DNA of 64,000 nucleotides from an uncultured Bacteriovoracaceae bacterium (GCA_964388905.1 CAYMDG010000001.1:7686-71685), one strand, 5' to 3'; positions 32,302 through 61,410 are shown, counted from the first letter of the stretch. A program made the numbers and translations. The notes: generated by a model not told the origin, from the sequence alone.

Positions 32302-32314
32302 TACGGGCAAACAC

Positions 32315-33970: not shown

Positions 33971-33974
33971 CGCC

Positions 33975-46228: not shown

Positions 46229-46327
46229 AAGGTGGAGGTTTTTCATTGTTGTTATGGAATTTGGGATGTTTAAGAAATCAAGGCAGGCCTCCCGGAATAA
46301 GGTACAAAAAGAGGGACTAGTGCACGC

Positions 46328-47275: not shown

Positions 47276-48015
47276 CCAAAGCTGCACAGTATGTCTCCCT
47301 GTCTGCCATGGATGAAGAACGCTTCGGCATAAAGACTGCCAAAACAACCGACTTCAACAGTGATCGCATACCCCTGATTCTGGAGTATTGTGAAGAAAAC
47401 ATGGTGGAGCTTCTCATTGCACGATGTGATACATCTGACTTTAAAGTAGTCCATGAGTTGGAGCGGCTGGGTTTCTTACTCATGGATACACTTATCTACT
47501 TTTCCTGCGACCTGACAAGGAAGGAAATACCGGTTGATGATCGTGAATTTCAGGTCAGAGCATTCAGGCCCGGTGAAGAACAAACTGTAAAGTCTATAGC
47601 AGGAAGATCTTTTCATGGTTACCTCAGTCACTATCATGCGGACAGCAGGCTTGATAAAAGAATGTCTGATGAGGTTTATGCCGATTGGGCCTATAAGTCC
47701 TGCCTCTCCCGTAAGGTGACAGAGCAGGTACTCGTTGCAGAATCAGGAAATGAGATCATCGGATTCGGAACCATGCGCATCAATGATCACAGGGAAGGAG
47801 AGGGTCTTCTTTTCGGGGTGGCACCCCCATATCAAGGAAGAGGTGCCTATCGATCGATCATGGTAAACTGCATGCGGTGGTGTGTGACAAGAGACCTCGG
47901 AAAGATGACCATTTCTACCCAGATCACAAATCTGGTAAGCCAGCATACTTGGATACGCCTCGGATTCGTGCCCTTTTATTCATGCTATACATTTCACAAG
48001 TGGTTTGATCGATGA
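47272..48015 (+). CDS. WecD-like GNAT N-acetyltransferase (dTDP-4-amino-4,6-dideoxy sugar acetyltransferase-like).
   Basis: Two-domain layout like E. coli WecD, with matching blocks (ELERLGF, YADWAYKSC vs YAQWIENAV, GKMTISTQITN vs GKTTLRVATQMGN). 4-bp overlap with the upstream GT2. Confidence 0.6.
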   Translation: MTKAAQYVSLSAMDEERFGIKTAKTTDFNSDRIPLILEYCEENMVELLIARCDTSDFKVVHELERLGFLLMDTLIYFSCDLTRKEIPVDDREFQVRAFRPGEEQTVKSIAGRSFHGYLSHYHADSRLDKRMSDEVYADWAYKSCLSRKVTEQVLVAESGNEIIGFGTMRINDHREGEGLLFGVAPPYQGRGAYRSIMVNCMRWCVTRDLGKMTISTQITNLVSQHTWIRLGFVPFYSCYTFHKWFDR

Positions 48016-48036
48016 AGAATAGAAGGTCGTGAAGGC

Positions 48037-48918
48037 ATGAAGATATGTATTGTATGCCACCAGCGATTTGAATCTGTTGAGTGGGGCTGTCCCAACTGTG
48101 GACATACTCCTCCTGTTAGGTCGGGGTTCTTTTCCTTCCTTGAAGACAATCTTTACCGGCATGAATCCTTTGACAGGAATTATTTTCCAGGACTGTACCA
48201 ACTTGAAAAGGATAATTTCTGGTTCATATACCGCAACAGGCTAATCTTAAGGGCCATTGGAAACAACTTTCCCGAGGTGCGACTTGTGATGGAAATAGGG
48301 TGCGGGACTGGATTTGTCCTCTCTGAAATCCGCAGAAGACATCAGCAGTTCAAGCTTTGTGGGAGTGATTTATACCTAGAAGGCCTGCAGTTTGCCAGCG
48401 CAAGAGTGCCGGATGCGGACTTCTATCAGATCGATGCATGCAAGATGCCTTTTATTGAGGAGTTCGACCTTATCCTGGCATTGGACATTCTTGAACACAT
48501 AGAAGATGATGATAAGGCACTTGAAGAGATATACAAATCGCTCGTGCCCGGAGGGGGACTGATTATTACGGTACCCCAGCATCAGTGGCTATGGTCCAAG
48601 CAGGATGAGAAAGCCTTTCACAGGCGAAGGTATGGGAAAAAGGAATTAATGCAGAAGCTAATGGATAGTGGTTTCCGGATTGTCCATATGACCTCATTCA
48701 TTACCCTTCTGCTCCCTCTCATGATATTTTCAAGGCTGTATGCACAACTTGCTGTGAGTAAGCAGAAGGAATATGATCCTCTGCGTGAGTTAAGGATTGC
48801 ATCTTCAATCAACCGTATCCTGAGTCAGGTATGTGGTGTTGAAGGGCGTATGTTAGAAAGAGGTAAATCTCTCCCAATCGGAGGGTCGTTGATCTGTATA
48901 GCAAGAAAAGGATCATGA
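48037..48918 (+). CDS. Class-I SAM-dependent methyltransferase with an N-terminal CxxC..CxxC zinc ribbon.
   Basis: CIVCHQRF..WGCPNCGH, then motif I VMEIGCGTGFVLS, and LDILEHIEDD. Confidence 0.7.
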   Translation: MKICIVCHQRFESVEWGCPNCGHTPPVRSGFFSFLEDNLYRHESFDRNYFPGLYQLEKDNFWFIYRNRLILRAIGNNFPEVRLVMEIGCGTGFVLSEIRRRHQQFKLCGSDLYLEGLQFASARVPDADFYQIDACKMPFIEEFDLILALDILEHIEDDDKALEEIYKSLVPGGGLIITVPQHQWLWSKQDEKAFHRRRYGKKELMQKLMDSGFRIVHMTSFITLLLPLMIFSRLYAQLAVSKQKEYDPLRELRIASSINRILSQVCGVEGRMLERGKSLPIGGSLICIARKGS

Positions 48919-48919
48919 T

Positions 48920-50071
48920 ATGGACCAAAAAGATATAAGGATACCGTTCAATAAACCTTTCATTGTGGGCAAGGAGCTCTACTATATCGCACAGGCAGTC
49001 ATAAAAGGACAGCTTGCCGGTGATGGGTATTATACTAAATTATGTCATGAATGGCTCGAGTGGAAGCTCGGCTGCAGGAAAGCCCTGCTGACACATTCAT
49101 GCACTGCTGCGCTTGAAATGTGCGCGATTCTCCTTGACATTCAACCTGGAGATGAGGTGATCTTGCCCTCTTTCACTTTTGTCTCGACAGCAAATGCCTT
49201 TGTGCTTCGAGGCGGGGTACCTGTGTTTGTGGATATCAGGCCCGATACCCTCAACATGGATGAAAACAGGATTGGAGAGGCAATTACGGACAAAACAAAA
49301 GCCATTGTTCCAGTTCACTATGCAGGGGTGCCTTGTTCGATGGATGAGATCATGTGCATAGCAGAGAAAAGCCATCTGTTTGTAGTGGAGGATGCTGCCC
49401 AAGCCCTTCTTTCCTCCTACCAAGGCAGACATCTCGGAACAATTGGCCACTTGGGCACCTTGAGCTTTCATGAGACAAAGAACATCATAAGCGGTGAGGG
49501 TGGAGCGCTCCTGATAAACGATGAGCAGTTCGTAAATAGGGCCGAAATCATCAGGGAGAAGGGTACTGATCGAGCTCGGTTCTTCAGGGGTGAGATCGAC
49601 AAGTATACATGGATGGACATCGGGTCGTCTTATCTTCCCAGTGAGCTTGTCAGTGCCTTTCTCTATGCCCAGATGGAGCAGGCGGAGCAGACCATTGAAA
49701 AACGGTGCAGGCTGTTCAACCTTTACTACAAGCAGCTCAGGACACTCGAGGATCAGGGTATTATCAGGCTTCCCTACATAGATGAGAATTGTTCAGGGAA
49801 TGCCCACATATTCTATATTATAACCGGTTCGCTTGATGAACGGACCCGGTTGATTCAATCTTTGAGAGAAGCCGGAATATTAACGGTATTTCACTATGTG
49901 CCCCTCCATTCGTCCCCTGCCGGCATGCACTATGGGAGGTCTGCCGGGGATATGAGGTATACGAACGACCTGAGCAACAGACTGCTCAGGCTGCCCTTGT
50001 ACTATGAGATGAATGATGAAGATGGAGAGTATATCGTGGGTCAGATCATGAGATTCTACGGTCAGGGCTGA
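48920..50071 (+). CDS. wecE: dTDP-4-keto-6-deoxy-D-glucose 4-aminotransferase (WecE, DegT family).
   Basis: Block-by-block match to E. coli WecE (IPFNKPFIVGKEL, LLTHSCTAALEMCAILLDIQPGDEVILPSFTFVSTANAFVLRG, FHETKNI, IREKGTDRARFFRGEIDKYTWMDIGSSYL, VFHYVPLHSSPAG). Confidence 0.85.
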   Translation: MDQKDIRIPFNKPFIVGKELYYIAQAVIKGQLAGDGYYTKLCHEWLEWKLGCRKALLTHSCTAALEMCAILLDIQPGDEVILPSFTFVSTANAFVLRGGVPVFVDIRPDTLNMDENRIGEAITDKTKAIVPVHYAGVPCSMDEIMCIAEKSHLFVVEDAAQALLSSYQGRHLGTIGHLGTLSFHETKNIISGEGGALLINDEQFVNRAEIIREKGTDRARFFRGEIDKYTWMDIGSSYLPSELVSAFLYAQMEQAEQTIEKRCRLFNLYYKQLRTLEDQGIIRLPYIDENCSGNAHIFYIITGSLDERTRLIQSLREAGILTVFHYVPLHSSPAGMHYGRSAGDMRYTNDLSNRLLRLPLYYEMNDEDGEYIVGQIMRFYGQG

Positions 50072-50110
50072 TCCCTCGATTTGTTTTGTTATGCACAGTG
50101 AAAAAGTAAG

Positions 50111-52387
50111 ATGAAAAAAGAAACCACCCCTTCAAAAAACATTCTCACGCAGCAGCATGGGCTGTTTATCCTCTCTCTGATCGTATTCTTGGCAGCAGCC
50201 ATTGGCGGCTGGATAAGACTCCGGTATGGTTTCAATTTCACGGATGAAGGGTACCATATGACCGAAAGCTGGAGGCTTGCGGCAGGAGACCATTTTCTCC
50301 ATGACAAGATCACAGGGGCCTTACTTCACTATACCCTGATCAATAAGATTGTATTTGATATCATTCCGGATATTACCCTGCTGGGTTTCAGAAGACTGCA
50401 GTTTTTACTGACTATCACGGCGGTGGCAATTTTTGCCGGTGCACTTTCGCGTACTCAGAAGGAATCTTGGCATCTTCCCTTTGTTTTTTCGATCATCGCC
50501 TTCACAGGGTTGAATGCTATCGGCGGCATACCCAACTTATATTATCAGACCTATCCTCACTTGTTCTTGACCTTGTACATCGGTTTTTTCATCTTCGGAT
50601 TGTATCAGCAGTCCCGCAAAGCAAGGTTTGCTTTTTTTCTTTTCTCCGGCCTATCACTGTGGGCGATGAGTCTGAGTGCACTCTATACGAGCACCATCAT
50701 TGCAGCGCCCATGGTTTTTTATTTCATGAACAAGAAACTGCTCCATGAAAGATTCAAGTTCAGTATTATGGATGTGTCCCTGGTCCTTATCCCCTTTGTC
50801 CTGTGCTGGGGTGTGTTCCTGGGAGTTTATGGCCGGGAATATATTCTCAATCTTATTAATTCCGCAAAGATGATGCAATCGATAGGGATCTTTTCCACCC
50901 ATACCCTGCTTCATATCAACTGGGGTCTTCTCACGCTCATTGGCATTGCCTCAGTTCTTCTTCTCGGTGCCGCCGCCATTATCCGGCAACCGAACAGGTA
51001 TCTGTTCTATTGCGGAGTCCTGATCTTCCCGGTCCTGATTTATGCGCTGGTCGGCTTCCCCTTCTGGAGTTACCTGTCAGGGAATATCACCACGGGTAAT
51101 GTTTATAATACCCCATGGGCGTGTTCAGCATTTCTCGCCTCGTTCCTTGTCCTGTTCTGGTCATCTGTCGCTTTCAAAACATTCAGAAAGCACGACCTCA
51201 GCCCATGTGAAGAAACCGGTATCATACTCATGGTGCCTGCAACGATTCTTGCCCTGTCAACCAGTCTGTTCTCCAGCCTCGGAATGCTTACCGTACTTCT
51301 GTCCTCCATACCCATCCTTGCCGTTATAGGATCATGGATACTGGGGACTCGAAAGATCACAGGGCTCTCGCCCGCCTATCAGTTTATTCTTCTCTTGCTT
51401 TTACTGGGACCCTTTTATCTCCGTCTCGCCTGGTTCGACTGGCAGTATCTGTTTACTGATGTCATCCCGTCACAGGCAACTTCCATAATCGAAGAAGGAT
51501 TCGGAAGGGGAATACGGACAAATTCCATGTACCTTGAGGTTTATGACTGGATAGAAGATACATCAGGCACGTATTCGAAAAAGGGGGATTTCATCATAGC
51601 CTACCCCATGTCGCCCATGGCACATATGATTGCAAAACGAAGGCCATCAATGGATGATACCTTCATCCACTTCGGTCTCAAAGGCCGGGGATACTATGAT
51701 GAGTCCATTGAATTCATGATGAAGCACAAACGCAAGCCCAGACTGGCCTTTGTTTTTGACCGGCCCATGACCCTTGTTCCCATATCCCCGCAACAGGGAA
51801 AGTATGGCTGGCCGCCTTCACAACTCGACCCTAAGCTTCAGGACCCCATCTCCGTTTATGTAAGAAGCACGATGTACGTACTTGACCGGTTCAAGGTCGA
51901 TGATGATTTCAGCATCACCTGCTATGTCGATAATCAGATAGATCCAGCCATTGCGCAGATACAAAAACTTACGGGAGTTGATCCTGAAAACCCTCAATTA
52001 TTTATTCAACTCGGCAACCTGTATAGGAAGAAGTCGGATTATCAGTCGGCCATCGACTCTTACCAGAGGTCGCTATCGCTGGATCCGCATTCGGCGGTTG
52101 TGCTTAACCAGCTTGCCAGGCTTTATACGCAACAGAAAAAAATGGATGACGCCGTTGCCATAATGAATAAACTGATTGCACTGAAGCCCGATGCACCTGA
52201 AACGTACTACAATCTTGCCTGTATGCATGCCATGTCAGGCAACCGCGAGGAGTCACTCAGGGCTTTGAAACGCGCGATAGACCTAGGTTTTAGTGACTGC
52301 AATCTGTTGAAGACGGACCATGACCTTGTGAATATCCGCAAGACCTCTCAATTCATGCAGATAATCACAGGCCGCTGCAGGCAATGA
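50111..52387 (+). CDS. Polytopic membrane protein (putative GT-C/ArnT-like) with C-terminal TPR and cap. Paralog of 56322..58568.
   Basis: ~13 TM helices. Post-TM1 acidic motif GFNFTDEGYHMTESWRLAAGD. Cap YYNLACMHAMSGNREESLRALKRAIDLGFSDCNLLKTDHDLVNIR. Confidence 0.6.
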   Translation: MKKETTPSKNILTQQHGLFILSLIVFLAAAIGGWIRLRYGFNFTDEGYHMTESWRLAAGDHFLHDKITGALLHYTLINKIVFDIIPDITLLGFRRLQFLLTITAVAIFAGALSRTQKESWHLPFVFSIIAFTGLNAIGGIPNLYYQTYPHLFLTLYIGFFIFGLYQQSRKARFAFFLFSGLSLWAMSLSALYTSTIIAAPMVFYFMNKKLLHERFKFSIMDVSLVLIPFVLCWGVFLGVYGREYILNLINSAKMMQSIGIFSTHTLLHINWGLLTLIGIASVLLLGAAAIIRQPNRYLFYCGVLIFPVLIYALVGFPFWSYLSGNITTGNVYNTPWACSAFLASFLVLFWSSVAFKTFRKHDLSPCEETGIILMVPATILALSTSLFSSLGMLTVLLSSIPILAVIGSWILGTRKITGLSPAYQFILLLLLLGPFYLRLAWFDWQYLFTDVIPSQATSIIEEGFGRGIRTNSMYLEVYDWIEDTSGTYSKKGDFIIAYPMSPMAHMIAKRRPSMDDTFIHFGLKGRGYYDESIEFMMKHKRKPRLAFVFDRPMTLVPISPQQGKYGWPPSQLDPKLQDPISVYVRSTMYVLDRFKVDDDFSITCYVDNQIDPAIAQIQKLTGVDPENPQLFIQLGNLYRKKSDYQSAIDSYQRSLSLDPHSAVVLNQLARLYTQQKKMDDAVAIMNKLIALKPDAPETYYNLACMHAMSGNREESLRALKRAIDLGFSDCNLLKTDHDLVNIRKTSQFMQIITGRCRQ

Positions 52388-52430
52388 ATTTTGCGGGCCG
52401 GCAAGAGAGCTCACCCAAGGTTATCTGTGC

Positions 52431-53111
52431 TTATGCAAGACTATCCCTGGTGTTTTCCTGGCGCGGAGCATTCTTATAGCACCTCATGAAACACCCGGTT
52501 TGCGGCCGGTTGCTCACATTGTGAATGACATGGGCTTCTACATGAGGGAATATATCTTGTGCAATTCTCTTGTAGTCATCAGGAGACCTGACATGTTTTC
52601 CCCTATCCGTCAGGCTGATCCATCGTGAAATAAATCCCTGATTTTCGATTAAGGTGGGGTCTGCCGTAAACATGAACCCTGTGTCGCACAGGACCTTGGA
52701 CCCTAAGGCAAAGAGTTCCGCGGCCTCGAAGTCGTTAAGATGATGGAGAAGACCGTCAGCTATCACAATGTCGAACAGAGCGCTGCCGGAGATGGTGATG
52801 TCATTCACCCGCTGATTATAAAATACTGCCCGGCTACCGAATTTATTCCGGGCATATGCAATATATTCGGCGCTCAGATCATATCCCACATAGTGGACAT
52901 CAGGGGGCAGGAGGGTGAGGATATCGGCACAACCGCAACCGATATCCAGTATCCTTTTCCCGTGAACGGGTTTCAGAAATCGCTCCAGGCACATCCGGTA
53001 CTTCCCATGGCTGTTCATGAGGTATTGGAAAAAAAGGTAAACGGCCGGGAGTCTGAGTAATGAACGGAGCCCGCTTGTTACCTGGTCATTATTGTCAGGC
53101 ATCGATCCCAT
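52431..53111 (-). CDS. Class-I SAM-dependent methyltransferase.
   Basis: Motif I ILDIGCGCADIL and motif II/III context (DIVIADGLLHHL). Confidence 0.7.
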   Translation of the reverse strand: MGSMPDNNDQVTSGLRSLLRLPAVYLFFQYLMNSHGKYRMCLERFLKPVHGKRILDIGCGCADILTLLPPDVHYVGYDLSAEYIAYARNKFGSRAVFYNQRVNDITISGSALFDIVIADGLLHHLNDFEAAELFALGSKVLCDTGFMFTADPTLIENQGFISRWISLTDRGKHVRSPDDYKRIAQDIFPHVEAHVIHNVSNRPQTGCFMRCYKNAPRQENTRDSLA

Positions 53112-53147
53112 TGACTCGCTTTTAGCTATCTCCTGTTCTTGGCGGCA

Positions 53148-54122
53148 TCAGTCGAATATCTTCTCGATGATGTATGCTTGCCTGTTCCGGACCTGATCAA
53201 GGGTCCTCCATAAATACTCTCCGATAATCCCGAGCATGAGCATCTGAATCCCGGATAACACCAGAACGATGATCATGAGAGGCGCCCATCCTTGAATGGG
53301 CACTGAGCCGAAAATCCTTCCGAAAAATATAACGAAGGCATAGAGAAAACCGAACAGGGCTACAATCAAACCGGTTACTGACATGGCCCTCAGGGGGAAG
53401 TAGGAATAGCTCATCACGCCGTCAATGAGATATTTAAGCTTTTTGCTGAATGTCCACCTGGATATGCCGATAGAGCGTTTTTCCCTTTTATAGGGGATGA
53501 ATTTGATATCATACCCTGTCCACAATATCTGGCCCTGAAAGAAGGCATTGGTTTCCTGGTTTTCCAGGATGATGTTTTTTACCTTCTCACTCAGGAGAAC
53601 GTAATCAAATCCCTTTGCAGGCATGTTTGAAAAACTTAACCGTTTCATGATGTAGTAAAACACCTCAGAGGTGCCCCGCCTGAAGAGGGATTCGTCACGG
53701 GATTCTCGAGAGCATACAACGATGTGATAACCGTCCCTGAAGTGATGATCGAGCATGTCATTGATCAATTCGGGGGGGTCCTGCAGGTCGGCTGAGATCG
53801 AGATGACACACTTCCCCTTGGCAAGCTTATACCCCGCCATGATCGCCTGAAGTTGCCCGAAGTTTCGCACGAATTTGATTACCTTTACCACGCCGGGGTG
53901 TTCATTGCGAATTTCCATCAGCTCAGTAAAAGAATTGTCACCTGAACCGTCGTCTACAAAGATGACCTCTCCGGTTCTTCCAGGGTTTTTTCTGATGACC
54001 TTTTCTTCTATGGCCCGATAGATTGGTTTCAGGCTTCCCTCGTTGAAGTAAACCGGTATGACAATTGAGAAATCCACGTGCTCTTCACTCACCTGGCATC
54101 TTCTCCTTGATCTCTTTGCCAT
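53148..54122 (-). CDS. ArnC/GtrB-like GT2 polyprenyl-phosphate sugar synthase (two C-terminal TM helices).
   Basis: FSIVIPVYFNEGSL...VIFVDDGSGDNS...SADLQDPPELI and a C-terminal GIIGEYLWR. ATG chosen at 54122 because the track's first codon is TTG. Overlaps the upstream aminotransferase stop. Confidence 0.75.
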   Translation of the reverse strand: MAKRSRRRCQVSEEHVDFSIVIPVYFNEGSLKPIYRAIEEKVIRKNPGRTGEVIFVDDGSGDNSFTELMEIRNEHPGVVKVIKFVRNFGQLQAIMAGYKLAKGKCVISISADLQDPPELINDMLDHHFRDGYHIVVCSRESRDESLFRRGTSEVFYYIMKRLSFSNMPAKGFDYVLLSEKVKNIILENQETNAFFQGQILWTGYDIKFIPYKREKRSIGISRWTFSKKLKYLIDGVMSYSYFPLRAMSVTGLIVALFGFLYAFVIFFGRIFGSVPIQGWAPLMIIVLVLSGIQMLMLGIIGEYLWRTLDQVRNRQAYIIEKIFD

Positions 54123-55329
54123 GAAGAACAATAAAGCGCATCAGCGAGCATATTGAATCGATATCGTCATGGCTCACCGATGACCCTGTCGGGAGACTTA
54201 TTACGCGTGAGAGGACCTTGTCCGTGCTTGGCAACAAAAGACCTGCATGGGGGAAATATGATCGGTAAGGTTCCATTTTATGGCAGCCGGGATAGAAATA
54301 GCGTCTGACCAGGATATTCTCACCCTGGAGTATCCTGACGATCTGATCGCGTGAAAGGTGCATCTGATTCTCGTCAACCTCGATTATAACATACTGATAG
54401 TTAGGCAGATTATCCGGTATGTACGCCAGGCATGTCAACCCGGGGACGGTTTCCAGGTTGTCCCGGTACCGGAAGTAATTCACACGATTGATCGCCACTA
54501 CCTCATCAAGGCTGTCGATGGATGCCAAACCCATTGCAGCCGACACCTCGTTCATCTTTCCGTTCGTGCCTATGTATATGACATTGTCATAGCCCATGAA
54601 CCCGAAGTTTTTCATCAGGCGTACCTTCAAGGCCAGATCATCATTGTTGGTGACCACGGCACCGCCTTCCAAGGTATTGATGAATTTCGTGGCATGGAAA
54701 CTGAAGACCTCGGCTTCCCCGAAATTACCCACCATCTTTCCGTTATGCCTGCATGAAAAGGCATGGGCGGCATCGTAGAGTACCTTCAGGTGATGCCTGC
54801 GCGCGATCTCATCGATGGCTTGTGTATCGCAGGGACGTCCCCAGAGGTGGACCCCGATTATCCCGGTCGTCCGGGGAGTTATCATGCGCTCAATCTGAGC
54901 GGGGTCGATGGTATGGGTCCTTTCATCTATGTCGCAAAAGACAGGGGTGATGGCCTGCCACTGCAAGGCGTGCGCTGTAGCAATAAAGGTGGCTGAAGGG
55001 ATGATCACTTCACCGGTCAGCCCAAGTGCACGGATCACAATTTCCAGAGCCACAGTACCGTTGCACATGGCGATGCAGTGTTTTACGCCGATCAATTCCG
55101 CGACCCTCTTTTCAAACTCCTGAACAAAGGGACCGTTGTTGGTAAGCCACTGGTTGTCTATGATGGTATTGATGCGATCGAGAAATCCTTTACGGTTGAT
55201 AATGTTCGGACGGCCGACATGAATCTTCTCTGAAAAGGCCGCCGGGCCGCCGAATATCTCCAGGTCTGCTATATTCTTTTTGACAGCGTTTTCGCGGGGC
55301 AAGGCATTCTCCCTTTCAAATAAAGTCAA
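54085..55329 (-). CDS. DegT/DnrJ/EryC1/StrS-family sugar aminotransferase (ArnB/PglE-like).
   Basis: PLP-enzyme motifs (HCIAMCNGTVALEIV, IPSATFIATAHAL, SFHATKFINTLEGGAVV). Confidence 0.85.
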   Translation of the reverse strand: MTLFERENALPRENAVKKNIADLEIFGGPAAFSEKIHVGRPNIINRKGFLDRINTIIDNQWLTNNGPFVQEFEKRVAELIGVKHCIAMCNGTVALEIVIRALGLTGEVIIPSATFIATAHALQWQAITPVFCDIDERTHTIDPAQIERMITPRTTGIIGVHLWGRPCDTQAIDEIARRHHLKVLYDAAHAFSCRHNGKMVGNFGEAEVFSFHATKFINTLEGGAVVTNNDDLALKVRLMKNFGFMGYDNVIYIGTNGKMNEVSAAMGLASIDSLDEVVAINRVNYFRYRDNLETVPGLTCLAYIPDNLPNYQYVIIEVDENQMHLSRDQIVRILQGENILVRRYFYPGCHKMEPYRSYFPHAGLLLPSTDKVLSRVISLPTGSSVSHDDIDSICSLMRFIVLHGKEIKEKMPGE

Positions 55330-55427
55330 ATTTCACACAAACCAGTGAAAGGACAGTCCTTTCTTACTCTAACGGATCGGTTAAACTGAAAAAAATATCA
55401 AATAATAATCTGTGAATCCTGATAACC

Positions 55428-56027
55428 TCAAAGTTTCCTGCGCAGACCTCTGGGGATGTAATCCCCCTGATCGTCGAATAATTCTCTCATCAGACGATCC
55501 TCCAGTTGAAGGATCTCATCCTTTGGTCTTGGCTTGATCTCTTTGCATGGGGAGCCCGCATAGACTGTCCAGGCCCTGCAATCTTTTGTTACCAGTGAAT
55601 TAGCGCCGATTGCGGCACCTTCACCGATAGTGATTCCAGGCAGTACTACGGAATTCGCCCCGATTATTGCATGCTTCCCTATGTGCACAAAGGACCGGAC
55701 AGGTACCCGGTATGGATGCGGAACAGACGGGTTTGTGAGGTATTTCCCTGAATAATCCTCATTGCCGGTATAGATCCTTACCCCGCTTGAAAGTCCGGCA
55801 AAGTCATGCATCGTGAATTCGCCGCCGCCGGTTATGGAGGTGAAGGATCCGATATGAATGAAATTGCCCAGAATGCTTTTTTTGCCTCCCATGAAAAATA
55901 CAAAATCATCTATGATGACAGAGTTCCCAATGAAAATTACCTCGGGATAAATGATTTTTGCCTGGGGCCAGATGAGAACATCCTGGCCTCTGGCTGCAAG
56001 AGGTAGTGACTCGGCTTGATTTGTCAT
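55428..56027 (-). CDS. Hexapeptide-repeat (LbH) acetyltransferase, PglD/WbpD-like amino-sugar N-acetyltransferase candidate.
   Basis: IGNSVIIDDFVFF..IGKHAIIGANSVVLPGITIGEGAAIGANSLV repeats, ~200 aa. First gene of a minus-strand operon with the aminotransferase and GT2. Confidence 0.7.
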   Translation of the reverse strand: MTNQAESLPLAARGQDVLIWPQAKIIYPEVIFIGNSVIIDDFVFFMGGKKSILGNFIHIGSFTSITGGGEFTMHDFAGLSSGVRIYTGNEDYSGKYLTNPSVPHPYRVPVRSFVHIGKHAIIGANSVVLPGITIGEGAAIGANSLVTKDCRAWTVYAGSPCKEIKPRPKDEILQLEDRLMRELFDDQGDYIPRGLRRKL

Positions 56028-56321
56028 GAACCTCCAAAGTTCTCTATCAAATACAGGTTATTTGCCAGGTAATTATGCATAACTATCTTTTCAGCATCAA
56101 GATAATAATCGTGCTGGTGTGTTTCTTGACAAGGGGATTTGCCCGATGATAAGCAGGCATAGGTGTTCGAATCTATGTCAGGGTATTTTTTTATTGGCAG
56201 CTGTGATCATCGATCATTGCAGGGAGGCTTTCAAGAAATGGACTGTGGCAGTGAAAATCATCATGTCATTATTCAATTTAATCGCATTTTGAACCAGAAC
56301 AAATCGATAGCCGGGTAGCAT

Positions 56322-58568
56322 ATGGATAATATCGAAATGTCAACCGACAAGCAGCAGCGTCTCGTTTTTGGCTTATCGCTCATCATCTTTTGTATTGCCG
56401 CTGTTACCGGGTGGGTGAAACTTCGCTATGGTTTCAATTTCATTGATGAGGGCTATCACATGACCGAGGCCTGGCGGCTTACCGCAGGCGATGATTTCTT
56501 CAAGGACAAATTCACCGGGGCATTGAGGGCTTCAACATTGTTGAATTACCTCGTTTTCAAGGTTTACCCGGCAATTACCTTGCTTGGGTTTCGTGAGCTT
56601 CAGCATGTTCTTACCCTTGCGTCATTGTTGCTCCTGAGTTACGCGCTTTTCCTTGTCAACAGGCAATACTGGTATCAGCCGCTCATTTTTTCCGTTTTTG
56701 CCTTTGTCGGACTTGACCCTGTCGGCATGATATCCAACATCTATTATCAGACATATCCGCACCTGTTTATCACCGTGCATCTGGCTTTTTTCATCATGGG
56801 ATTGCACCAGGAATCTCAGACGGCCAAAAGGGTGTTATATGTCATGTCGGGCATTTCCCTGTGGCTTATCAGTTTCAGCCTGCTGCATATGAGTCTTGTT
56901 GTCCTCTCTCCGGTAGCGGTGTTTCTCCTATTCAAAGCCCTGAAGATAAAATCTCCGGACTTCTCTTTTTCAGATCTCTGTTTTGTCCTGGCCCCGGTTC
57001 TCCTTTTTTGGGCATTTTTCATCGGGCTCTTCAATAAACCGTTTATTGATAATGTACTCTCATCGATTCAGTTGATCCTCTCTACATCGACCCATGCCGC
57101 CGGAACACTTGTCTCGATTAACAAGGAGGCGATGAAACATATAGGCATTACCGTACCTTTTATTATTGCCGGCATTTTTATCTTGAAGATAAACAAAATA
57201 GCCGTTCTCTGCGGTGCAATGAGCATTCTTGCACTCTTAATGTATTTCGTCATCGATACGGCATTCTTCGGATTGATTAACCCTTACTATAACGGCTGGT
57301 TTGACCGGCCCATGTGGCTGGTAGCACTGCTGGTATCATCGTACTTCATTTCATTGTGTTATTTCATGTGGAAGGTTCTGAACAGGAAGCAACTGGACAA
57401 CCTTGAGATATATTCCATGATCCTGTTTATTCCCGGCATCATCATGGCGATAAGCAGCAGCATTTTTTCCGCTCTGGGCATCCTGACCGTGCTGCATGCA
57501 TCCATACCTGCTGTTGCAGCCATAACGCTTTTATTCCTGTCCATGAAGACCATAACAAAGCGATCATATATGGAGAAGTTCATTGTCCTTCTCTTGTTTT
57601 TTGCACCTTTTTATTACACAAGCGCATGGTCCGACTGGAGATTCACCTTTTTCGATGTAACCCCTGAACAAGCCACGGTTGAGATAGATAAAGGGTTCGG
57701 CAGAGGAATAAAGACGAATCAGGTTTACAAGGATCTCTACGAGTGGATCGGTAACATCTCGGAAAAGTACTCGAAGAAAGATGATTTTATTATTTCCTAT
57801 GTCGTCTCTCCCATGGTGCACATGATTTCCCGGCGAAGACCTTCACTGGATGATCCATTTATAAATTTCATAGAGGTTCCCCCGGATTACTATGTAAAGG
57901 CAATTGCCTTCATGAGAGAAAGAAGGCGCGAACCACGGCTGGCATTCGTGTTTGAGGGAATGCCCGGACTTTTGCCCATTTCTCTGGAAGATGGCACCTT
58001 CAAGTGGATCGACAAACAGTTCTCTTTCCCTTCCAGAGAGCCGGTGTCGGACTATGTAGCGAAGAATATGATCCCTCTCGATATGTTTCACCTCACCGAT
58101 GGCCTGAACGTGAAATGCTTTATCGACAGATCGTACGCATTGGAAGAAGGCTTAAAATCCAATCCTGCCAATCCGGAGCTTAATGTACGGTTGGGAATCC
58201 TGTATCAGAAACGAGGGGATATCGATAATGCTCTCCGGTTCTACAAGACAGCCCTGGAGTCCAATCCCGGCTTTATTCAGGCGCTCCAGAACCTGGCAGC
58301 AGCGTATTCCCTCAAAGGGAATAATGAAGCGGCACTGCAGGCCTTGAAACGGATCATCACTATCGACCCGGACCGCAATGACACGTATTATAATATTGCG
58401 TGCCTCTATGCGAAGCAGCGGCAAACCGATGTTTCGGTTGCCTGGCTCCGGAAGGCTGTGGAGAAAGGCTTCAAGGATTGGCACCTCCTCAAGACTGACC
58501 ATGATGTGGATAACATCAGAACCACTGAATATTACAAGGAAATCATGATCAAAAATGCTGCTGAATAA
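56322..58568 (+). CDS. Polytopic membrane protein (putative GT-C/ArnT-like) with TPR and cap. Paralog of 50111..52387.
   Basis: GFNFIDEGYHMTEAWRLTAGDD. Cap YYNIACLYAKQRQTDVSVAWLRKAVEKGFKDWHLLKTDHDVDNIR. Confidence 0.6.
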   Translation: MDNIEMSTDKQQRLVFGLSLIIFCIAAVTGWVKLRYGFNFIDEGYHMTEAWRLTAGDDFFKDKFTGALRASTLLNYLVFKVYPAITLLGFRELQHVLTLASLLLLSYALFLVNRQYWYQPLIFSVFAFVGLDPVGMISNIYYQTYPHLFITVHLAFFIMGLHQESQTAKRVLYVMSGISLWLISFSLLHMSLVVLSPVAVFLLFKALKIKSPDFSFSDLCFVLAPVLLFWAFFIGLFNKPFIDNVLSSIQLILSTSTHAAGTLVSINKEAMKHIGITVPFIIAGIFILKINKIAVLCGAMSILALLMYFVIDTAFFGLINPYYNGWFDRPMWLVALLVSSYFISLCYFMWKVLNRKQLDNLEIYSMILFIPGIIMAISSSIFSALGILTVLHASIPAVAAITLLFLSMKTITKRSYMEKFIVLLLFFAPFYYTSAWSDWRFTFFDVTPEQATVEIDKGFGRGIKTNQVYKDLYEWIGNISEKYSKKDDFIISYVVSPMVHMISRRRPSLDDPFINFIEVPPDYYVKAIAFMRERRREPRLAFVFEGMPGLLPISLEDGTFKWIDKQFSFPSREPVSDYVAKNMIPLDMFHLTDGLNVKCFIDRSYALEEGLKSNPANPELNVRLGILYQKRGDIDNALRFYKTALESNPGFIQALQNLAAAYSLKGNNEAALQALKRIITIDPDRNDTYYNIACLYAKQRQTDVSVAWLRKAVEKGFKDWHLLKTDHDVDNIRTTEYYKEIMIKNAAE

Positions 58569-58595
58569 TCAATCCAACCTAGTGGGGGACAGGGT

Positions 58596-59195
58596 ATGAA
58601 GCGAAGACTTCCTTACATGATTACATTGATGTTGTTGGTCCTGTCGGCATGCTCCAAACAACAGACCCAGGAGGGTGAGGCCTATTTCCCCAGGGTCACC
58701 AAGGGGGCGCAATGGGAATATTTATTGAAGTATGTAACCCCAAAAGGTGACGTGGTCGACGGAAGGTTGTTGGTCCGGGTTGAAGGGGAGGAAACCATAG
58801 GGGGGAAAAAGTATCAGAAAAATATCAGCACCATCACCGGGTTACCCGGCGCTAAACCTCAATCCACCTACACAAGAAGGACTGAAAAGGGCATCTACAG
58901 GTTAGAAGGAGACAAGCAGGACTATCTAGTTACACCCTTTCCGGTTTCAGTCGGAAACACATGGAAAACGCAGTCACCCGATGGAGAGATCCAATTTATG
59001 GCAGAGAAAATTGAGACGGTGAAAATATTGAACAAGGAATATAAAGATGCCCTCAAAGTATCTTTTCACGGTGAAAAAAAATCGAGCCATATAGAAGGCT
59101 ACTCATACTTTTCAGCAGGTGTGGGTGAACTCATGACCAATATGAAAGTAGGAGATGCCATTATAGAGTATGTCCTGGATAAGTATAAATTATAA
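58596..59195 (+). CDS. Predicted lipoprotein of unknown function.
   Basis: Signal peptide with lipobox (LLVLSAC-S), ~200 aa, soluble. Confidence 0.5.
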   Translation: MKRRLPYMITLMLLVLSACSKQQTQEGEAYFPRVTKGAQWEYLLKYVTPKGDVVDGRLLVRVEGEETIGGKKYQKNISTITGLPGAKPQSTYTRRTEKGIYRLEGDKQDYLVTPFPVSVGNTWKTQSPDGEIQFMAEKIETVKILNKEYKDALKVSFHGEKKSSHIEGYSYFSAGVGELMTNMKVGDAIIEYVLDKYKL

Positions 59196-59199
59196 TAAA

Positions 59200-61410
59200 C
59201 TAATGGGTAGAAGCGGGAATCTGTTCATTCATCAGATCCCTGACAAAGGCAGTCTTTCTGATATTCTCAAGGTCAGGGTCTTTCTTGATCAGATCCCAGT
59301 TATTAAAGCCTTTTTCAATTGACTGTTTCAACCACCTGATGGATTCATCGGGCATGTCCTGTTTCGCATAGAGGCAGGCAAGATTATAATAGACTTCGGG
59401 GTTGTCAGGCTGTGAGAGTTTCATTTCAAGCAATACATCAAGAGCCTTAGCGTATTCCTGCCTTTGCGAATAGACGAGAACAAGTCCATAGGAGGCCTTG
59501 ACAGAGTCGGATTGAACCGAGATAGCCGCGTGATAACGGGCAATTGCCTGATCGTCTTCACCCAGCTGGCGATAAACATCTCCAAGCCTGGTGAGAAGAA
59601 CAGGATTACGGGGTTGAATCTTCAGCTCTTCCAGTATTCTTGTGATCAGTCCTTCAAGGTTTCTCTGTGCTGCCCTGGCTTTTTCCAAGTCGTTCATTGC
59701 TTCAACATACCCCGGCTTCTCGTGAATCGCTTTCTCATAATATTCTATGGCCTTTTTTAAGTTGCCTTTCCTGAAAAATGCTATCCCAATATTATAATAT
59801 ATACCAGGCTGATGCGGATCCATCCTCGCTTGTTCCAGATAGCTCTTGATCGCTTCATCATAATTCCCTTTTGCAATCAGAACATTCCCGAGGTTGTTAC
59901 GGATATAGCCACTTTGTTGTGGGTTGATCCTTAAACAAGTGCGGTATTCAGCAGCGGCCTCATCGTAGTGGCCGCCGCTGTAGAGGGCGTTCCCGAGATT
60001 ATAATGTGCGTCAAGATAATAAGGTTTGATCTTTACAGATTGACGGTACTCGTGAATGGCACCCTCTATATCTCCTTTCTGAGAAAGGGCAAGCCCAAGG
60101 CCATTATGTGCCATAAAGTTGTCCCTGGTTACCGCAAGGGTGTGGGTGAAGAGCATTTCGGAATTTTTCCAATACCCCACCTGAATCCAGGTCAGTACCA
60201 TCAGAACAAGGAGGATTCCAGGCATTGCTATTACGGCGGCAGTCTTAAAATATCTCCATCTTCCCAACAGTTCGGGTACCCCCCAGCAGACAGCAATGAA
60301 TACGCCGATATACGTGAGGTATGCATAACGGTCTGCAAGTTCAGGCCACAAGCCTGCCTGGAAAAGGCCGAGGAAGGGGACAAGGCCGCCGAGAAACCAA
60401 AGCCAGCCCACAAGAAGATACGGATGACTCAGTACAGTCCGCAGGGCAAGTATTGTCACCAGCACCAGGACAAGAACCGCACCGGTAATCTGCCAGAAGG
60501 GGATCATGTCGGGGTAGGGATAGAAAACCGCCAGATTAGCGGGCCAGAAGAGATTGCCCAGGTATTTTATAGTGGAGACCAGTGCATTTGAAATGCGAAG
60601 ACCCATGGGCGCAAACTCGGCGCCATATAAACCCATACGCTGGTTGGCACCGAGCAGGTTGCTTGCCAGGGAGGCAAATGAGAGAGCCAGGAAAGGGATC
60701 TTTTCAATTATCAGGTTCAAAATGGGCGTGCCTGAGGTTCTCAGCGCCCAAGACTTATCATTTTCATCTTTCCTTTCGATTTGAAGCCTCTTGAGAGGCC
60801 AGAGATCAAGCAGCAGCATGATAAAAGGGAGAGTCATGATAGCGGGCTTGGCCAGCAGACCGAGTTCGAATATCAGCAGAACCAGGAGGTACCTTTTCCA
60901 GCCGGATTTCCTGACATAAAAGAGGTATGCCAGCAATGTCAGCATAAAGAAGAGGCCGCTCAGGACATTGTTCAGTTCCGCTATCCATGCGACCGACTCC
61001 ACATTAATGGGGTGGAGGGCGAACAAGGCACCTACAAAAGCACTCTTCCAGAATTCTCCGGTCGTGTTTTTCAGCAGGGAAAATAGCAGAGCACTGCTGG
61101 CGACATGAAGGGCAAGCATCAGAACATGGAATGCTCCCGGATTTAATCCGAAGACCGCATGGAACGCGGTGTAGGCAAACCAGGTGAGCGGCGCACACCA
61201 GGATTCTGGGCTGAAAGACCAAACAAGATTCTTCCAGCTGAGCCCTGAAAGGACATGGACCTGTTCGGTAAGCTGCAAAGGGTCGTCTATGTGAACAAAG
61301 CCATTGCCGGCCATTCGGGAATATACGAGAGTCGTAGATAGGGTCAAGAAGAGATAGAACAGGAGATTTTGATAACTGACTACGAGCCGGCGGATGGTTC
61401 CCATCTTCAT
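59200..61410 (-). CDS. TMTC/PMT-like GT-C membrane glycosyltransferase with TPR and cap. Closest paralog of 18453..20822.
   Basis: FVHIDDPLQLTEQVHV, ALFALHPINVESVAWIAELNN, cap YYNLACLYAKQDMPDESIRWLKQSIEKGFNNWDLIKKDPDLENIR. Confidence 0.8.
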   Translation of the reverse strand: MKMGTIRRLVVSYQNLLFYLFLTLSTTLVYSRMAGNGFVHIDDPLQLTEQVHVLSGLSWKNLVWSFSPESWCAPLTWFAYTAFHAVFGLNPGAFHVLMLALHVASSALLFSLLKNTTGEFWKSAFVGALFALHPINVESVAWIAELNNVLSGLFFMLTLLAYLFYVRKSGWKRYLLVLLIFELGLLAKPAIMTLPFIMLLLDLWPLKRLQIERKDENDKSWALRTSGTPILNLIIEKIPFLALSFASLASNLLGANQRMGLYGAEFAPMGLRISNALVSTIKYLGNLFWPANLAVFYPYPDMIPFWQITGAVLVLVLVTILALRTVLSHPYLLVGWLWFLGGLVPFLGLFQAGLWPELADRYAYLTYIGVFIAVCWGVPELLGRWRYFKTAAVIAMPGILLVLMVLTWIQVGYWKNSEMLFTHTLAVTRDNFMAHNGLGLALSQKGDIEGAIHEYRQSVKIKPYYLDAHYNLGNALYSGGHYDEAAAEYRTCLRINPQQSGYIRNNLGNVLIAKGNYDEAIKSYLEQARMDPHQPGIYYNIGIAFFRKGNLKKAIEYYEKAIHEKPGYVEAMNDLEKARAAQRNLEGLITRILEELKIQPRNPVLLTRLGDVYRQLGEDDQAIARYHAAISVQSDSVKASYGLVLVYSQRQEYAKALDVLLEMKLSQPDNPEVYYNLACLYAKQDMPDESIRWLKQSIEKGFNNWDLIKKDPDLENIRKTAFVRDLMNEQIPASTH

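Follow-up and report, generated by a model that had tools for sequence, protein, structure and literature searches.

The paralogous membrane proteins designated here as B1 and B2, encoded in DNA from an uncultured Bacteriovoracaceae bacterium, are likely to be rare, sequence-orphan integral membrane glycosyltransferases of the GT-C(A) fold that act within a three-component scheme, for which we infer the activity, donor, module pairing and acceptor. The stretch of DNA analyzed (the window) is 64,000 nucleotides long, and the bracket formed by B1 and B2 belongs to an envelope-glycosylation island that spans the window. A first-pass annotation, whose gene coordinates all proved accurate, had described two 13-TM proteins on either side of a minus-strand operon. 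The features that define the pair are as follows.

50111-52387, plus strand: B1, 758 aa, predicted orphan GT-C-fold membrane protein and final gene of the plus-strand module
50231-50266, plus strand: EL1 motif of B1, FNFTDEGYHMTE (aa 41-52), with D45-E46 as the candidate catalytic acid pair on the model
56322-58568, plus strand: B2, 748 aa, B1 paralog with identical architecture
56433-56468, plus strand: EL1 motif of B2, FNFIDEGYHMTE (aa 38-49), counterpart of the B1 motif

BLASTP aligns B1 and B2 end to end over 746 aa with 40% identity and 61% positives (E=0), which places their paralogy far beyond chance. In the AlphaFold (AF2) model of B1 (pLDDT 90.5, pTM 0.91), the membrane part is composed of the anticipated 13 TM helices, the loop after TM1 contains two short helices, and a periplasmic alpha/beta domain follows at aa ~446-610. 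The TPR caps that had been noticed earlier were recovered as profile matches at both C-termini (B1 aa ~610-758, B2 aa ~600-748), and both arrays terminate in the generic NCBIfam 'TPR end-of-group' domain.

When the B1 model was compared with the PDB using Foldseek, ranks 1-22 were all occupied by GT-C proteins (probability 0.99-1.00, E 2e-6 to 7e-3). STT3, AglB and PglB are the best matches (ranks 1-13 and 19), and ArnT (5f15 and 5ezm), AftA, ALG9 and Pmt4 are also present, while the transporters in the match list all have E>0.04 and probability <0.3. The same comparison gives low TM-scores (0.38-0.45) and a large rmsd against solved GT-C structures, and thus the GT-C assignment rests on the Foldseek probability and on the exclusive match list. 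On this model, the fold of B1 and B2 is predicted with high confidence to be that of glycosyltransferases that use lipid-linked sugars. Given the modelled helices and an N-terminus inside, the cytoplasmic loops of B1 carry 19 K+R and the short periplasmic loops 5, so by the positive-inside rule the DEGYH loop, the C-terminal domain and the TPRs are predicted to be periplasmic rather than cytoplasmic.

The motif FNF(T/I)DEGYHMTE was correctly reported after TM1 of both proteins, and DE occurs only once in the membrane domain of each. D45 and E46 are kept in 52/52 family sequences, and T51, W54, R55, G59 and D60 in 53/53. Even in a wider superfamily alignment that takes in relatives at 15-23% identity, D45, R55, D60 and Y145 are invariant, and E46 and R94 are at least 90% conserved. 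All six of these residues (D45, E46, R55, D60, R94 and Y145) are on the periplasmic side by the modelled topology. The EL2 motif is the canonical TGLDP in B2 and TGLNA in B1. Position 135 of B1 is N, and 51 of 53 family members have D or E there, which suggests that B1 and B2 may differ in activity. The fold of the B1 model, the loop topology, the conservation of DE and the gene neighborhoods described below together support the earlier proposal that these proteins are GT-C transferase candidates.

Sequence comparison alone does not yield this assignment. Pfam and NCBIfam return zero matches on B1 aa 1-610, the membrane domains of B1 and B2 go undetected by Pfam, NCBIfam or PDB sequence profiles, and the models for PMT_2, ArnT, STT3 and DUF1736 match neither protein. 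A profile alignment of the B family with the PMT_2-like family (hhalign) gives a probability of 0.3%, and no sequence or profile method ties the B family to any known GT-C. The family is also rare, with 311 members among 1.84 billion cluster representatives, and its named sources are all uncultured-genome (MAG) records, mostly Desulfobacterales and Syntrophales. Only 14/91 B homologs carry TPRs, and 77/91 lack them.

The operon between B1 and B2 (52431-56027) had been described as encoding an LbH acetyltransferase, a DegT protein, a GT2 and a methyltransferase, and domain matches agree on all four.

55428-56027, minus strand: hexapeptide (left-handed beta-helix) N-acyltransferase, AntD-like (Pfam Hexapep)
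54085-55329, minus strand: DegT-family PLP aminotransferase, DesI/AntC-like (Pfam DegT, 1.5e-107)
53148-54131, minus strand: GtrB-type GT2 with two C-terminal TM helices (full-length alignment to GtrB, then ArnC)
52431-53111, minus strand: class I SAM methyltransferase (Pfam Methyltransf_25/12/31)

The closest solved relatives of the acyltransferase are 3vbi and 3vbn (E 8e-36), the latter being AntD, the N-acyltransferase of D-anthrose biosynthesis (PMC6031040). The aminotransferase, whose closest PDB relative is 2po3 (E 7e-127), scores 528 bits against NCBIfam DesI (cut-off 650) and 203 bits against ArnB (cut-off 631), and is predicted to make an NDP-4-amino-4,6-dideoxyhexose. The GT2, a predicted polyprenyl-phosphate sugar synthase, best matches GtrB sll0501 (5ekp, E 8e-59) among solved structures, with ArnC second; its NCBIfam scores for PgfS (192 bits) and ArnC (150 bits, cut-off 529) are both under cut-off. 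The first 47 nt of this GT2 gene overlap the 3' end of the aminotransferase gene. No informative solved relative was found for the methyltransferase. The operon had been likened to the Ara4N pathway, and the order of the proposed steps matches, but its enzymes score well below the ArnB and ArnC equivalog cut-offs (203 versus 631 and 150 versus 529 bits). Judged by sequence, the module enzymes are closer to DesI/AntC, AntD and GtrB than to ArnB and ArnC, and the Arn analogy is one of logic only. The methyltransferase gene converges on B1, and B2 diverges from the operon.

A second module, absent from the first-pass annotation, lies on the plus strand (46328-52387) and consists of a GT2, a WecD-like GNAT, a methyltransferase, WecE and B1, which starts 39 nt past the end of the WecE gene.

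46328-47275, plus strand: ArnC/GtrB-like GT2 with two C-terminal TM helices, which opens the module
47272-48015, plus strand: GNAT acyltransferase, distantly WecD-like (Pfam Acetyltransf_1)
48037-48918, plus strand: class I SAM methyltransferase (Pfam) with an N-terminal Cys4 zinc-ribbon-like segment
48920-50071, plus strand: WecE, dTDP-4-amino-4,6-dideoxygalactose (or -glucose) transaminase (NCBIfam)

WecE is well above cut-off for NF008687 (609 versus 375 bits) and TIGR02379 (593 versus 435 bits). The GT2 matches NCBIfam ArnC over its full length at 191 bits (cut-off 529), the GNAT reaches 53 bits for WecD (cut-off 219), and the solved relatives of the methyltransferase are all generic.

The remaining features bear on lipid-linked donors or on other candidate transferases in the window.

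36217-37314, minus strand: flippase-like multi-TM protein, LPG_synthase_TM (PF03706, 2.8e-45)
41681-43897, plus strand: A-family paralog with PMT_2 (35.5 bits, cut-off 26.1) and TPRs, 42% identical to A1
44000-46228, plus strand: A1, TMTC/PMT_2-like GT-C, upstream in the same plus-strand gene run
58596-59195, plus strand: predicted lipoprotein with a signal peptide ending LSAC, 27 nt past B2
59200-61410, minus strand: A2, A-family paralog with PMT_2 (26.5 bits, cut-off 26.1) and TPRs, 35% identical to A1

The protein at 36217-37314, which also matches the TIGR00374 'flippase-like domain' in NCBIfam (89.7 bits, cut-off 43.2), is the sole candidate flippase seen for lipid-linked donors and is 9-16 kb from the modules. 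Its homologs are found within 10 kb of a B gene in 4/39 fetched loci, directly adjoining it in L008 and ~8 kb away in L009. The operons contain no GtrA/SMR-type flippase. A WecF-like GT56 (14904) and a Wzx flippase are present in the window. Neither RmlA nor RmlB, which are needed for dTDP-4-keto-6-deoxyglucose, was seen within the window, nor were ArnA, ArnD, ArnT or ArnE/F homologs. The lipoprotein has no match in Pfam or NCBIfam and, with zero tblastn matches in 39 related loci, is not conserved beside B genes.

Gene neighborhoods elsewhere were informative. B genes are present in 36 of the 39 loci fetched, and in 24 of these a GtrB/ArnC-like GT2 is no more than 10 kb away; DegT is equally near in 14, and genes for methyltransferases and hexapeptide acyltransferases are frequent. 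These four gene types co-travel with B genes in several unrelated MAGs. Local gene order is also kept: WecE then B1 in L008 (closest genome), the divergent GT2/B2 pair in L010, and B with a converging GT2-methyltransferase pair in L007. A gene for one 689-aa protein in which GT2 and DegT are fused adjoins two B genes in L002, and GtrA is present in L003.

These observations are consistent with a mechanism of four steps. First, cytoplasmic enzymes would generate N-acylated, possibly methylated, NDP-4-amino-4,6-dideoxyhexoses, through WecE and the WecD-like GNAT in the plus-strand module and through the DesI/AntC-like aminotransferase and AntD-like acyltransferase in the minus-strand module. Second, the membrane-anchored GtrB/ArnC-type GT2 of each module would load the sugar on undecaprenyl phosphate, although we know of no characterized GtrB-type enzyme that uses a dTDP-amino-dideoxyhexose. 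Third, the lipid-linked sugar would be flipped across the membrane by a protein that has no identified gene in the operons. Finally, B1 or B2 would move the sugar to an envelope acceptor in the periplasm, with catalysis by the EL1 acid pair D45-E46 and with R55, D60, R94 and Y145 close by. The acceptor or a partner protein would bind to the C-terminal alpha/beta domain and TPR array. Systems that combine a GtrB-type GT2 with a GT-C glycosylate O antigens, teichoic acids and proteins (PMC11127046, PMC12041528).

The donor might instead be a common sugar. If so, B1 and B2 would still be GT-Cs, but the GT2s would load Glc, GlcNAc or GalNAc from UDP-sugars on Und-P, and the products of WecE, the DesI-like enzyme and the acyltransferases would feed cytoplasmic Leloir transferases such as the GT56 at 14904. 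This arrangement seems rather unlikely, even though the characterized relatives of the GT2s (GtrB, PgfS and ArnC) use UDP-sugars (PMC12041528, PMC11127046) and the window holds both that WecF-like GT56 and a Wzx flippase. DegT is also less frequent than GT2 near B genes (14/36 versus 24/36 loci), and in L012 (closest genome) a B2-like gene adjoins Gmd/epimerase genes instead, which suggests that sugar modules are interchangeable. Against this, the overlap of the DegT and GT2 genes here and their fusion into one polypeptide in L002 argue for a single pathway, and amino-sugar genes accompany B genes together with GT2 in several unrelated MAGs.

It is improbable that B1 and B2 act as oligosaccharyltransferase-like enzymes (PglB/AglB/STT3 type), which would transfer a preassembled Und-PP-oligosaccharide to proteins as one unit instead of using Und-P as the donor of a single sugar. 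The leading fold matches belong to that group and share with the model a layout of 13 TM helices plus a C-terminal periplasmic domain, the TPR arrays suggest protein binding, and a Wzx flippase is within the window. However, neither a WWDxG nor a DxD motif is present in B1 or B2, Pfam STT3 has no match, and ArnT, AftA, ALG9 and Pmt4 fit the B1 fold nearly as well. Moreover, the gene that recurs next to B genes encodes a GtrB-type Und-P-monosaccharide synthase (accompanied by GtrA in L003) and not an initiating phosphoglycosyltransferase, and TPRs are confined to the minority of homologs noted above.

The window also encodes PMT_2-like membrane proteins of another TPR-capped family (41681, 44000, 59200, 7125, 18453 and the distant 22250), which the first-pass annotation did not mention. 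A1 carries a DD motif behind TM1 and ends in a long TPR array. It has 35-42% identity to paralogs scoring above the Pfam PMT_2 cut-off, and its D44-D45 are invariant across five A-family paralogs; its low-confidence structure model has PglB and Pmt4 as top matches. A2 converges on the B2-lipoprotein pair. These neighboring proteins are equally valid GT-C candidates and might be the true partners of the GT2s. That those at 41681, 44000 and 59200 are the modules' transferases, leaving B1 and B2 as flippases, scaffolds or agents of a non-glycosyl lipid-dependent transfer, is likewise improbable despite their sequence-level GT-C link (PMT_2 above cut-off in two paralogs, DD after TM1), their position on both sides of the modules and the lack of a dedicated flippase in the operons, since 21/36 B loci have no A gene within 10 kb, many of them retaining GT2 (e.g., L001, L002 and L005), B proteins keep, on the periplasmic side, invariant acidic and basic residues of the kind expected in an active site, and the B fold matches only GT-Cs, with transporters at probability <0.3.

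With B1 and B2 taken as GT-C glycosyltransferases, their nearest parallels are the three-component systems (GtrA/GtrB/Gtr-type GT-C; CsbB/YfhO; PgfS/PgfM1; Citrobacter GT136), in which a GT2 with C-terminal TM helices likewise adjoins a multi-TM GT-C-fold protein that carries an acidic motif in the extracytoplasmic loop after TM1; the GtrA in homologous locus L003 fits this pattern. Unlike those systems, B1 and B2 show no match in sequence to the models for Gtr-type proteins, YfhO, ArnT or GT136, the small flippase is not in the operons, and the B copies in the window are fused to TPR arrays. The modules also add genes for an aminotransferase, an N-acyltransferase and a methyltransferase, and the donor implied by these is an N-acyl-4-amino-4,6-dideoxyhexose and not Glc, Gal, GlcNAc or a pentofuranose.

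The ArnB/ArnC/ArnT pathway for lipid A Ara4N has a similar progression from an aminotransferase, to a GT2 for loading Und-P with an N-acylated amino sugar, to a 13-TM GT-C that makes the transfer in the periplasm. ArnT is among the significant B1 fold matches, and ArnC is the second-best solved relative of the GT2 at 53148. In contrast, the scores here are far lower than the Arn equivalog cut-offs (ArnB 203 versus 631 bits, ArnC 150-191 versus 529), and the aminotransferases are of WecE and DesI types, whose substrates are dTDP-6-deoxyhexoses and not a UDP-pentose.

TMTC1-4 and the PMT-clan O-mannosyltransferases share an N-terminal GT-C domain, an acidic pair in EL1 and then TPRs on the lumenal or periplasmic side. 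In the PMT family, loop 1 contains a DE motif. For TMTCs, the motif is DD (PMC7801869). The A family of the window fits the TMTC architecture at the sequence level, whereas B1 and B2 have 13 TM helices rather than 11, an extra alpha/beta periplasmic domain preceding the TPRs, no match to PMT_2 or DUF1736, and mostly TPR-free homologs (77/91).

The minus-strand module also parallels Bacillus anthrose biosynthesis (AntC, AntD and O-methylation), with enzyme types corresponding to those needed for N-acyl, O-methyl 4-amino-4,6-dideoxyglucose. In Bacillus, Leloir enzymes attach anthrose to the glycan of a spore protein in the cytoplasm, whereas the module here is coupled to a GtrB-type GT2 and GT-C proteins.

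New GT-C families in the three-component scheme are still being founded, such as GT136 in 2024 (PMC11127046). The predicted GT-C fold, together with adjoining genes for making and lipid-loading unusual amino sugars, indicates that B1 and B2 probably represent a rare, previously undescribed family of enzymes acting from the periplasm to decorate the cell envelope. This would be a sequence-orphan GT-C family that follows a known three-component glycosylation logic, with a putative amino-sugar donor and a putative envelope acceptor.

The two paralogous 13-TM membrane proteins, called B1 and B2, are encoded as follows (other genes are named by their lower coordinate).

50111-52387, plus strand: B1, 758 aa
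56322-58568, plus strand: B2, 748 aa

Every gene claimed by the first-pass annotation was found on the ORF map, and the proposed paralogy is borne out by a full-length alignment (40% identity, E=0). As described there, FNF(T/I)DEGYHMTE lies directly behind the first hydrophobic helix (B1 aa 41-52, B2 aa 38-49), with DE occurring a single time in each membrane domain, and TPR caps are present in the form of Pfam TPR repeats from ~aa 610 of B1 and ~aa 600 of B2. Searches with the membrane part were uniformly negative. Pfam yielded zero matches to aa 1-610 of B1 and B2 even at E<=10, NCBIfam yielded zero matches to the membrane domains at E<=1, and a PDB sequence search with B1 aa 1-610, either as a single sequence or as a 53-sequence profile, returned nothing meaningful. 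The PMT_2/ArnT family models (PF13231; GT83/GT39 clan) gave no sequence match to either protein, and ten distant full-length members of the B family (the homologs of B1 and B2; 15-23% identity) had no Pfam match either.

Structure prediction was more informative. An AlphaFold2 model of B1 built from a 53-sequence alignment (pLDDT 90.5, pTM 0.91) contains 13 TM helices, a pair of short helices in the post-TM1 loop, and a C-terminal alpha/beta domain (aa ~446-610). In a Foldseek comparison with the PDB, ranks 1-22 are held exclusively by GT-C glycosyltransferases (E 2e-6 to 7e-3, probability 0.99-1.00), including STT3, AglB, PglB, ArnT, AftA, ALG9 and Pmt4, and transporters and GPCRs come next at E>0.04 and probability <0.3. 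Because TM-scores to solved GT-Cs are modest (0.38-0.45), the claim is limited to a shared fold class and does not extend to close similarity. The GT-C structural class is defined by a multi-pass membrane domain of 7-13 TM with 3D resemblance to solved GT-C enzymes, and B1 and B2 are predicted by the model to belong to it (GT-C_A type). Topology was read from the modelled helices with the N-terminus taken as cytoplasmic. There are 19 K+R in 96 cytoplasmic-loop residues versus 5 in 144 short-periplasmic-loop residues, a bias that puts four parts of the protein on the periplasmic side: the DEGYH loop, the loop between TM3 and TM4, the C-terminal domain and the TPR array. Acidic residues of the first extracytoplasmic loop would face the periplasm in this model, as is characteristic of GT-C enzymes. 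Neither a non-GT-C fold nor a cytoplasmic DEGYH motif, the two outcomes named at the outset as speaking against a GT-C transferase, was found.

A word-indexed search with B1 aa 1-610 recovered 91 homologs, all unnamed or 'hypothetical'; only 14 carry TPRs, and the membrane part is free of Pfam domains in all 91. Both D45 and E46 are present in 52/52 B-family sequences; T51, W54, R55, G59 and D60 occur in 53/53, R94, N142 and Y145 show no variation either, and H150 is found in 52/53. When B1 and B2 are aligned with distant members (15-23% identity), the residues that stay invariant besides the start methionine are G40, D45, R55, G59, D60, Y145 and P543, and conservation is at least 90% for E46, G47 and R94. 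The DE motif, whose conservation the earlier annotation wished to see checked, is thus maintained even in remote relatives. By the modelled topology, the conserved polar residues should all lie on the periplasmic side, as would suit an active site of GT-C type with a polyprenyl-phosphate sugar as its ligand, and G40, D45-E46, R55, G59-D60, R94 and Y145 constitute a candidate active-site signature.

A departure from the family pattern is seen in the TM3-TM4 loop, where B1 (aa 133-141, nt ~50507-50533) and its closest ortholog, P0001, read TGLN(A/T)xGGIP and the rest of the family reads TGL(D/E)PxGMIS. N135 is present in B1 and its 52% ortholog, D or E occupies this position in 51/53 sequences, and B2 keeps the canonical TGLDP. 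N135 is a trait of this subclade only, with Asn in place of an acidic residue that is otherwise almost invariant in the periplasmic TM3-TM4 loop, and the chemistry of B1 and B2 may differ, given N135 versus D.

Members of the B family are rare. When 1.84 billion cluster representatives were searched exhaustively with a profile, only 311 were recovered at E<=1e-3 (174 at E<=1e-10). The named sources of B-family loci are all MAGs, from Desulfobacterales families and Syntrophales/Smithella, plus one Nitrospirae and one 'Betaproteobacteria' record with homologs of 29% identity.

B1 and B2 had been described as bracketing a single minus-strand operon. That operon exists, but the description omitted a plus-strand module as well as a family of PMT_2/TMTC-like TPR membrane proteins, the A family. 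With gaps of <=102 nt, a plus-strand run comprises 41681, 44000, the GT2 46328, the GNAT 47272, the methyltransferase 48037, the aminotransferase 48920 and, last, B1. Since B1 closes this run, there are two sugar modules, not one.

Plus-strand module
46328, plus strand: GT2 with two C-terminal TM helices; full-length match to NCBIfam ArnC, 2.8e-56
47272, plus strand: GNAT acyltransferase, distantly WecD-like
48037, plus strand: methyltransferase, class I
48920, plus strand: putative WecE aminotransferase; NF008687 609 bits versus cut-off 375, TIGR02379 593 versus 435
Minus-strand module
52431-53111, minus strand: SAM methyltransferase, class I
53148-54131, minus strand: GT2 with two C-terminal TM helices; full-length match to GtrB (5ekp, 8e-59), then ArnC
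54085-55329, minus strand: DegT aminotransferase; nearest DesI (2po3, E 7e-127), NCBIfam DesI 528 bits, cut-off 650
55428-56027, minus strand: hexapeptide acyltransferase; nearest 3vbi/3vbn, E 8e-36

The equivalog cut-off passed by 48920 predicts a WecE, the dTDP-4-amino-4,6-dideoxyhexose transaminase, and 3vbn is AntD, the N-acyltransferase of D-anthrose biosynthesis (PMC6031040). Searches of solved structures with both methyltransferases gave generic class I matches only. Of the parallel to Ara4N synthesis, the logic holds and the membership does not: the ArnB model scores 203 bits versus a cut-off of 631 and the ArnC model 150-191 versus 529, and with both equivalog cut-offs missed so widely the Arn pathway serves as an analogy. 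The window ORFs that were scanned include no formyltransferase/decarboxylase and no deformylase. The most economical product would be a 4-amino-4,6-dideoxyhexose with an N-acyl and possibly a methyl group (of Fuc4NAc or viosamine type, like anthrose), which would presumably be loaded onto Und-P. RmlA and RmlB were not seen in the window, and no characterised GtrB-type enzyme is known to use an N-acyl-4-amino-4,6-dideoxyhexose donor. A promoter/terminator scan of 43800-62400 gave results not usefully above shuffled expectation. The lipoprotein 58596 is not conserved beside B genes in other genomes and is not counted in the system.

Gene neighborhoods elsewhere were compared in 39 loci, seven from homolog-bearing contigs and 32 from a GTDB scan, of which 36 contain a B gene, often in twos or threes. 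By tblastn, a GtrB/ArnC-like GT2 lies within 10 kb of the B gene in 24/36 loci, a DegT gene in 14/36, and an A-family gene in 15/36; the neighbors include GT2s of 310-345 aa, hexapeptide acyltransferases, DegT proteins and methyltransferases. The order WecE then B1 recurs in the closest genome (locus L008), the divergent GT2/B2 pair recurs in L010, and a B gene converging on a methyltransferase and GT2 recurs in L007. In L002 (ENA ERZ21869602 ctg94890l, 5452-7521), a single 689-aa GT2-DegT fusion is divergent from two tandem B genes, a Rosetta-stone indication that aminotransferase and GT2 serve the same pathway. A different cassette is present in L012, where a B2-like gene is followed by Gmd, an epimerase, an MTase-GT2 fusion, a hexapeptide gene and a GT2, and the sugar cassettes are thus modular.

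The best-supported reading is that B1 and B2 work in the known three-component scheme of GtrB-type synthase, flippase and GT-C transferase (PMC11127046), of which protein-targeting examples have been described (PMC12041528). GT2s of predicted GtrB type with C-terminal TM anchors are encoded beside the putative GT-C, as in this scheme, and the GT-C component would be the sequence-orphan B family, with its DE acid pair, C-terminal alpha/beta domain and optional TPRs. No dedicated flippase (GtrA/SMR, MATE or similar) was found within 44000-61410, and GtrA is present in one locus, L003. The sole candidate flippase is a TIGR00374 flippase-like protein at 36217, homologs of which are found close to B genes in L008 and L009. 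The presence of TPRs points tentatively to a protein as acceptor or partner, but most family members are without them.

A rival reading makes the A family the true transferase. Its six proteins, TMTC/PMT_2-like and each with a long C-terminal TPR array, represent an unusual local expansion within 64 kb.

7125-9374, minus strand: A-family protein
18453-20822, minus strand: A-family protein
22250-24823, plus strand: A-family protein
41681-43897, plus strand: A-family protein
44000-46228, plus strand: A-family protein
59200-61410, minus strand: A-family protein

Close members are 34-55% identical (22250 is distant, ~23%). The Pfam PMT_2 cut-off is passed by 41681 (35.5) and 59200 (26.5), not by 44000, and a DD directly behind TM1 is invariant. 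The architecture resembles that of TMTC-type proteins, namely a PMT-clan membrane domain, an EL1 DD motif after TM1 and C-terminal TPRs (PMC7801869); the DUF1736 loop of TMTC was not detected in the A family. An AF2 model from five paralogs is poor (pLDDT 54.8), and its top fold matches, PglB and Pmt4, lend weak support only. In all-against-all BLAST, the TPRs are the sole region common to the A and B families. An hhalign comparison is not significant (probability 0.3%), and its placement of DEGYH opposite the A-family DD was given no weight. The last ~55 residues are common to B1, B2, the A family, 24924 and 32195; the idea that this cap is a special docking module was dropped because NCBIfam identifies the cap as its generic 'TPR end-of-group' domain.

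A second rival concerns the donor of B1 and B2, which could be a common UDP-sugar; we infer a polyprenyl-phosphate-linked sugar only from the recurrent adjacency to GtrB/ArnC-like GT2 genes. A third rival is OST-like en bloc transfer by B1 and B2. Their resemblance to STT3/PglB/AglB would in the model be one of fold only, and WWDxG and DxD motifs are absent from both proteins, neither of which matches the STT3 Pfam model (GT66). Overall, the proposal that B1 and B2 are lipid-donor GT-C transferases is supported by predicted fold, topology, motif and context.

The surrounding DNA is rich in related functions. Further polyprenyl-phosphate-sugar-synthase-like GT2s are encoded at 20904-21857 (minus) and 39451-41061 (plus), with AglJ, DolP-hexose and PpgS-like matches, which brings the window's count to four (20904, 39451, 46328, 53148). 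The protein 39451 carries an N-terminal methyltransferase fusion and lies downstream of Gmd (37543) and an epimerase/reductase (38654); MTase-GT2 fusions occur close to B genes in 8 loci. Large multi-TM proteins are encoded by the neighboring genes 24924-27104 (plus) and 27124-29175 (plus); both have zero Pfam/NCBIfam matches and may be further orphan GT-C-like families. The protein 24924 combines 'VKDGDIWFH' right behind TM1 with a TPR end cap, 27124, with ~12 TM helices, lacks TPRs, and two 24924-like genes adjoin the B1 ortholog in L008. An MBOAT acyltransferase, 30880-32301 (plus), precedes two single-TM proteins that are 47% identical, 32195-33814 (plus) and 33897-35384 (plus), each with a weak DUF1574 match and the same TPR end cap. 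These three look like a TPR-fused periplasmic O-acylation set of AlgI/AlgJ or PatA/PatB type, and the same MBOAT and partner pair lies near a B gene in L009.

Secreted DUF6160-type proteins are encoded at 55-684 (plus), 790-1677 (plus), 29414-30616 (minus) and 35381-36049 (minus). They have 'MTPxTDxDLxxVTGQ' behind a signal peptide and are Gly/Ser/Thr-rich, two of them end in SWIDIWAH, and 55-684 matches the C-terminal half of 29414 at 54% identity. These proteins could serve as surface-protein acceptors, and a DUF6160-type homolog is found near the B1 ortholog in L008. A small secreted protein, 10943-11608 (minus), has a C-terminal PEP-CTERM-like sorting signal (VPIPPAIIMLGSGILGLLGFRSRMRSE), and proteins of this class are generally assumed to be glycosylated. 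A separate Wzx-type glycan locus at 11895-18263 (minus) contains HisF/HisH-like genes (11895, 12660), a Wzx flippase (13371), a GT56 WecF-like gene of Fuc4NAc-transferase type (14904), a PP-loop amidotransferase-like ORF (16078) and a further ORF (17250); it may compete with the two modules for the same dTDP-amino sugars. At the island edge, 62375-63367 (plus) encodes an HpnA-like NAD-dependent sugar epimerase (TIGR03466 321 bits versus cut-off 368).

A far broader reading can be put forward, although we consider it rather unlikely. The B family would found a new CAZy-level GT-C family, mainly of Desulfobacterales and Syntrophales. Its substrates would be N-acyl (and methylated) 4-amino-4,6-dideoxyhexoses resembling anthrose or Fuc4NAc, taken from Und-P-linked donors of a kind not described before and passed to proteins of the periplasm or cell surface that the TPR array captures. 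It would form one arm of a combinatorial envelope 'glyco-code' island with ~ten GT-C-like paralogs and four polyprenyl-P-sugar synthases per 64 kb.

On the strength of the model, B1 and B2 are best described as probable GT-C-fold enzymes of a three-component system, without a match in the Pfam, NCBIfam and PDB sequence libraries searched. The three-component logic is already established, and current understanding is not overturned. GT-C enzymes are difficult to detect by sequence. The B family is confidently modelled and invisible to the libraries searched; it now has a defined candidate active-site signature and a recurring genomic context from which its donor pathway is predicted. GT-C families are still being founded singly, as with GT136 in 2024 (PMC11127046). 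With the motif and alignment, ~300 'hypothetical' protein clusters can be annotated, and B1 and B2 are a well-defined candidate, open to direct test, for a new GT family and for novel amino-sugar donors linked to lipid, from anaerobes that have received little study. If confirmed, this would add one more GT family, document Und-P-linked N-acyl-aminodideoxyhexoses as periplasmic donors, and open up the barely studied envelope glycobiology of sulfate-reducing and syntrophic Deltaproteobacteria-type lineages.
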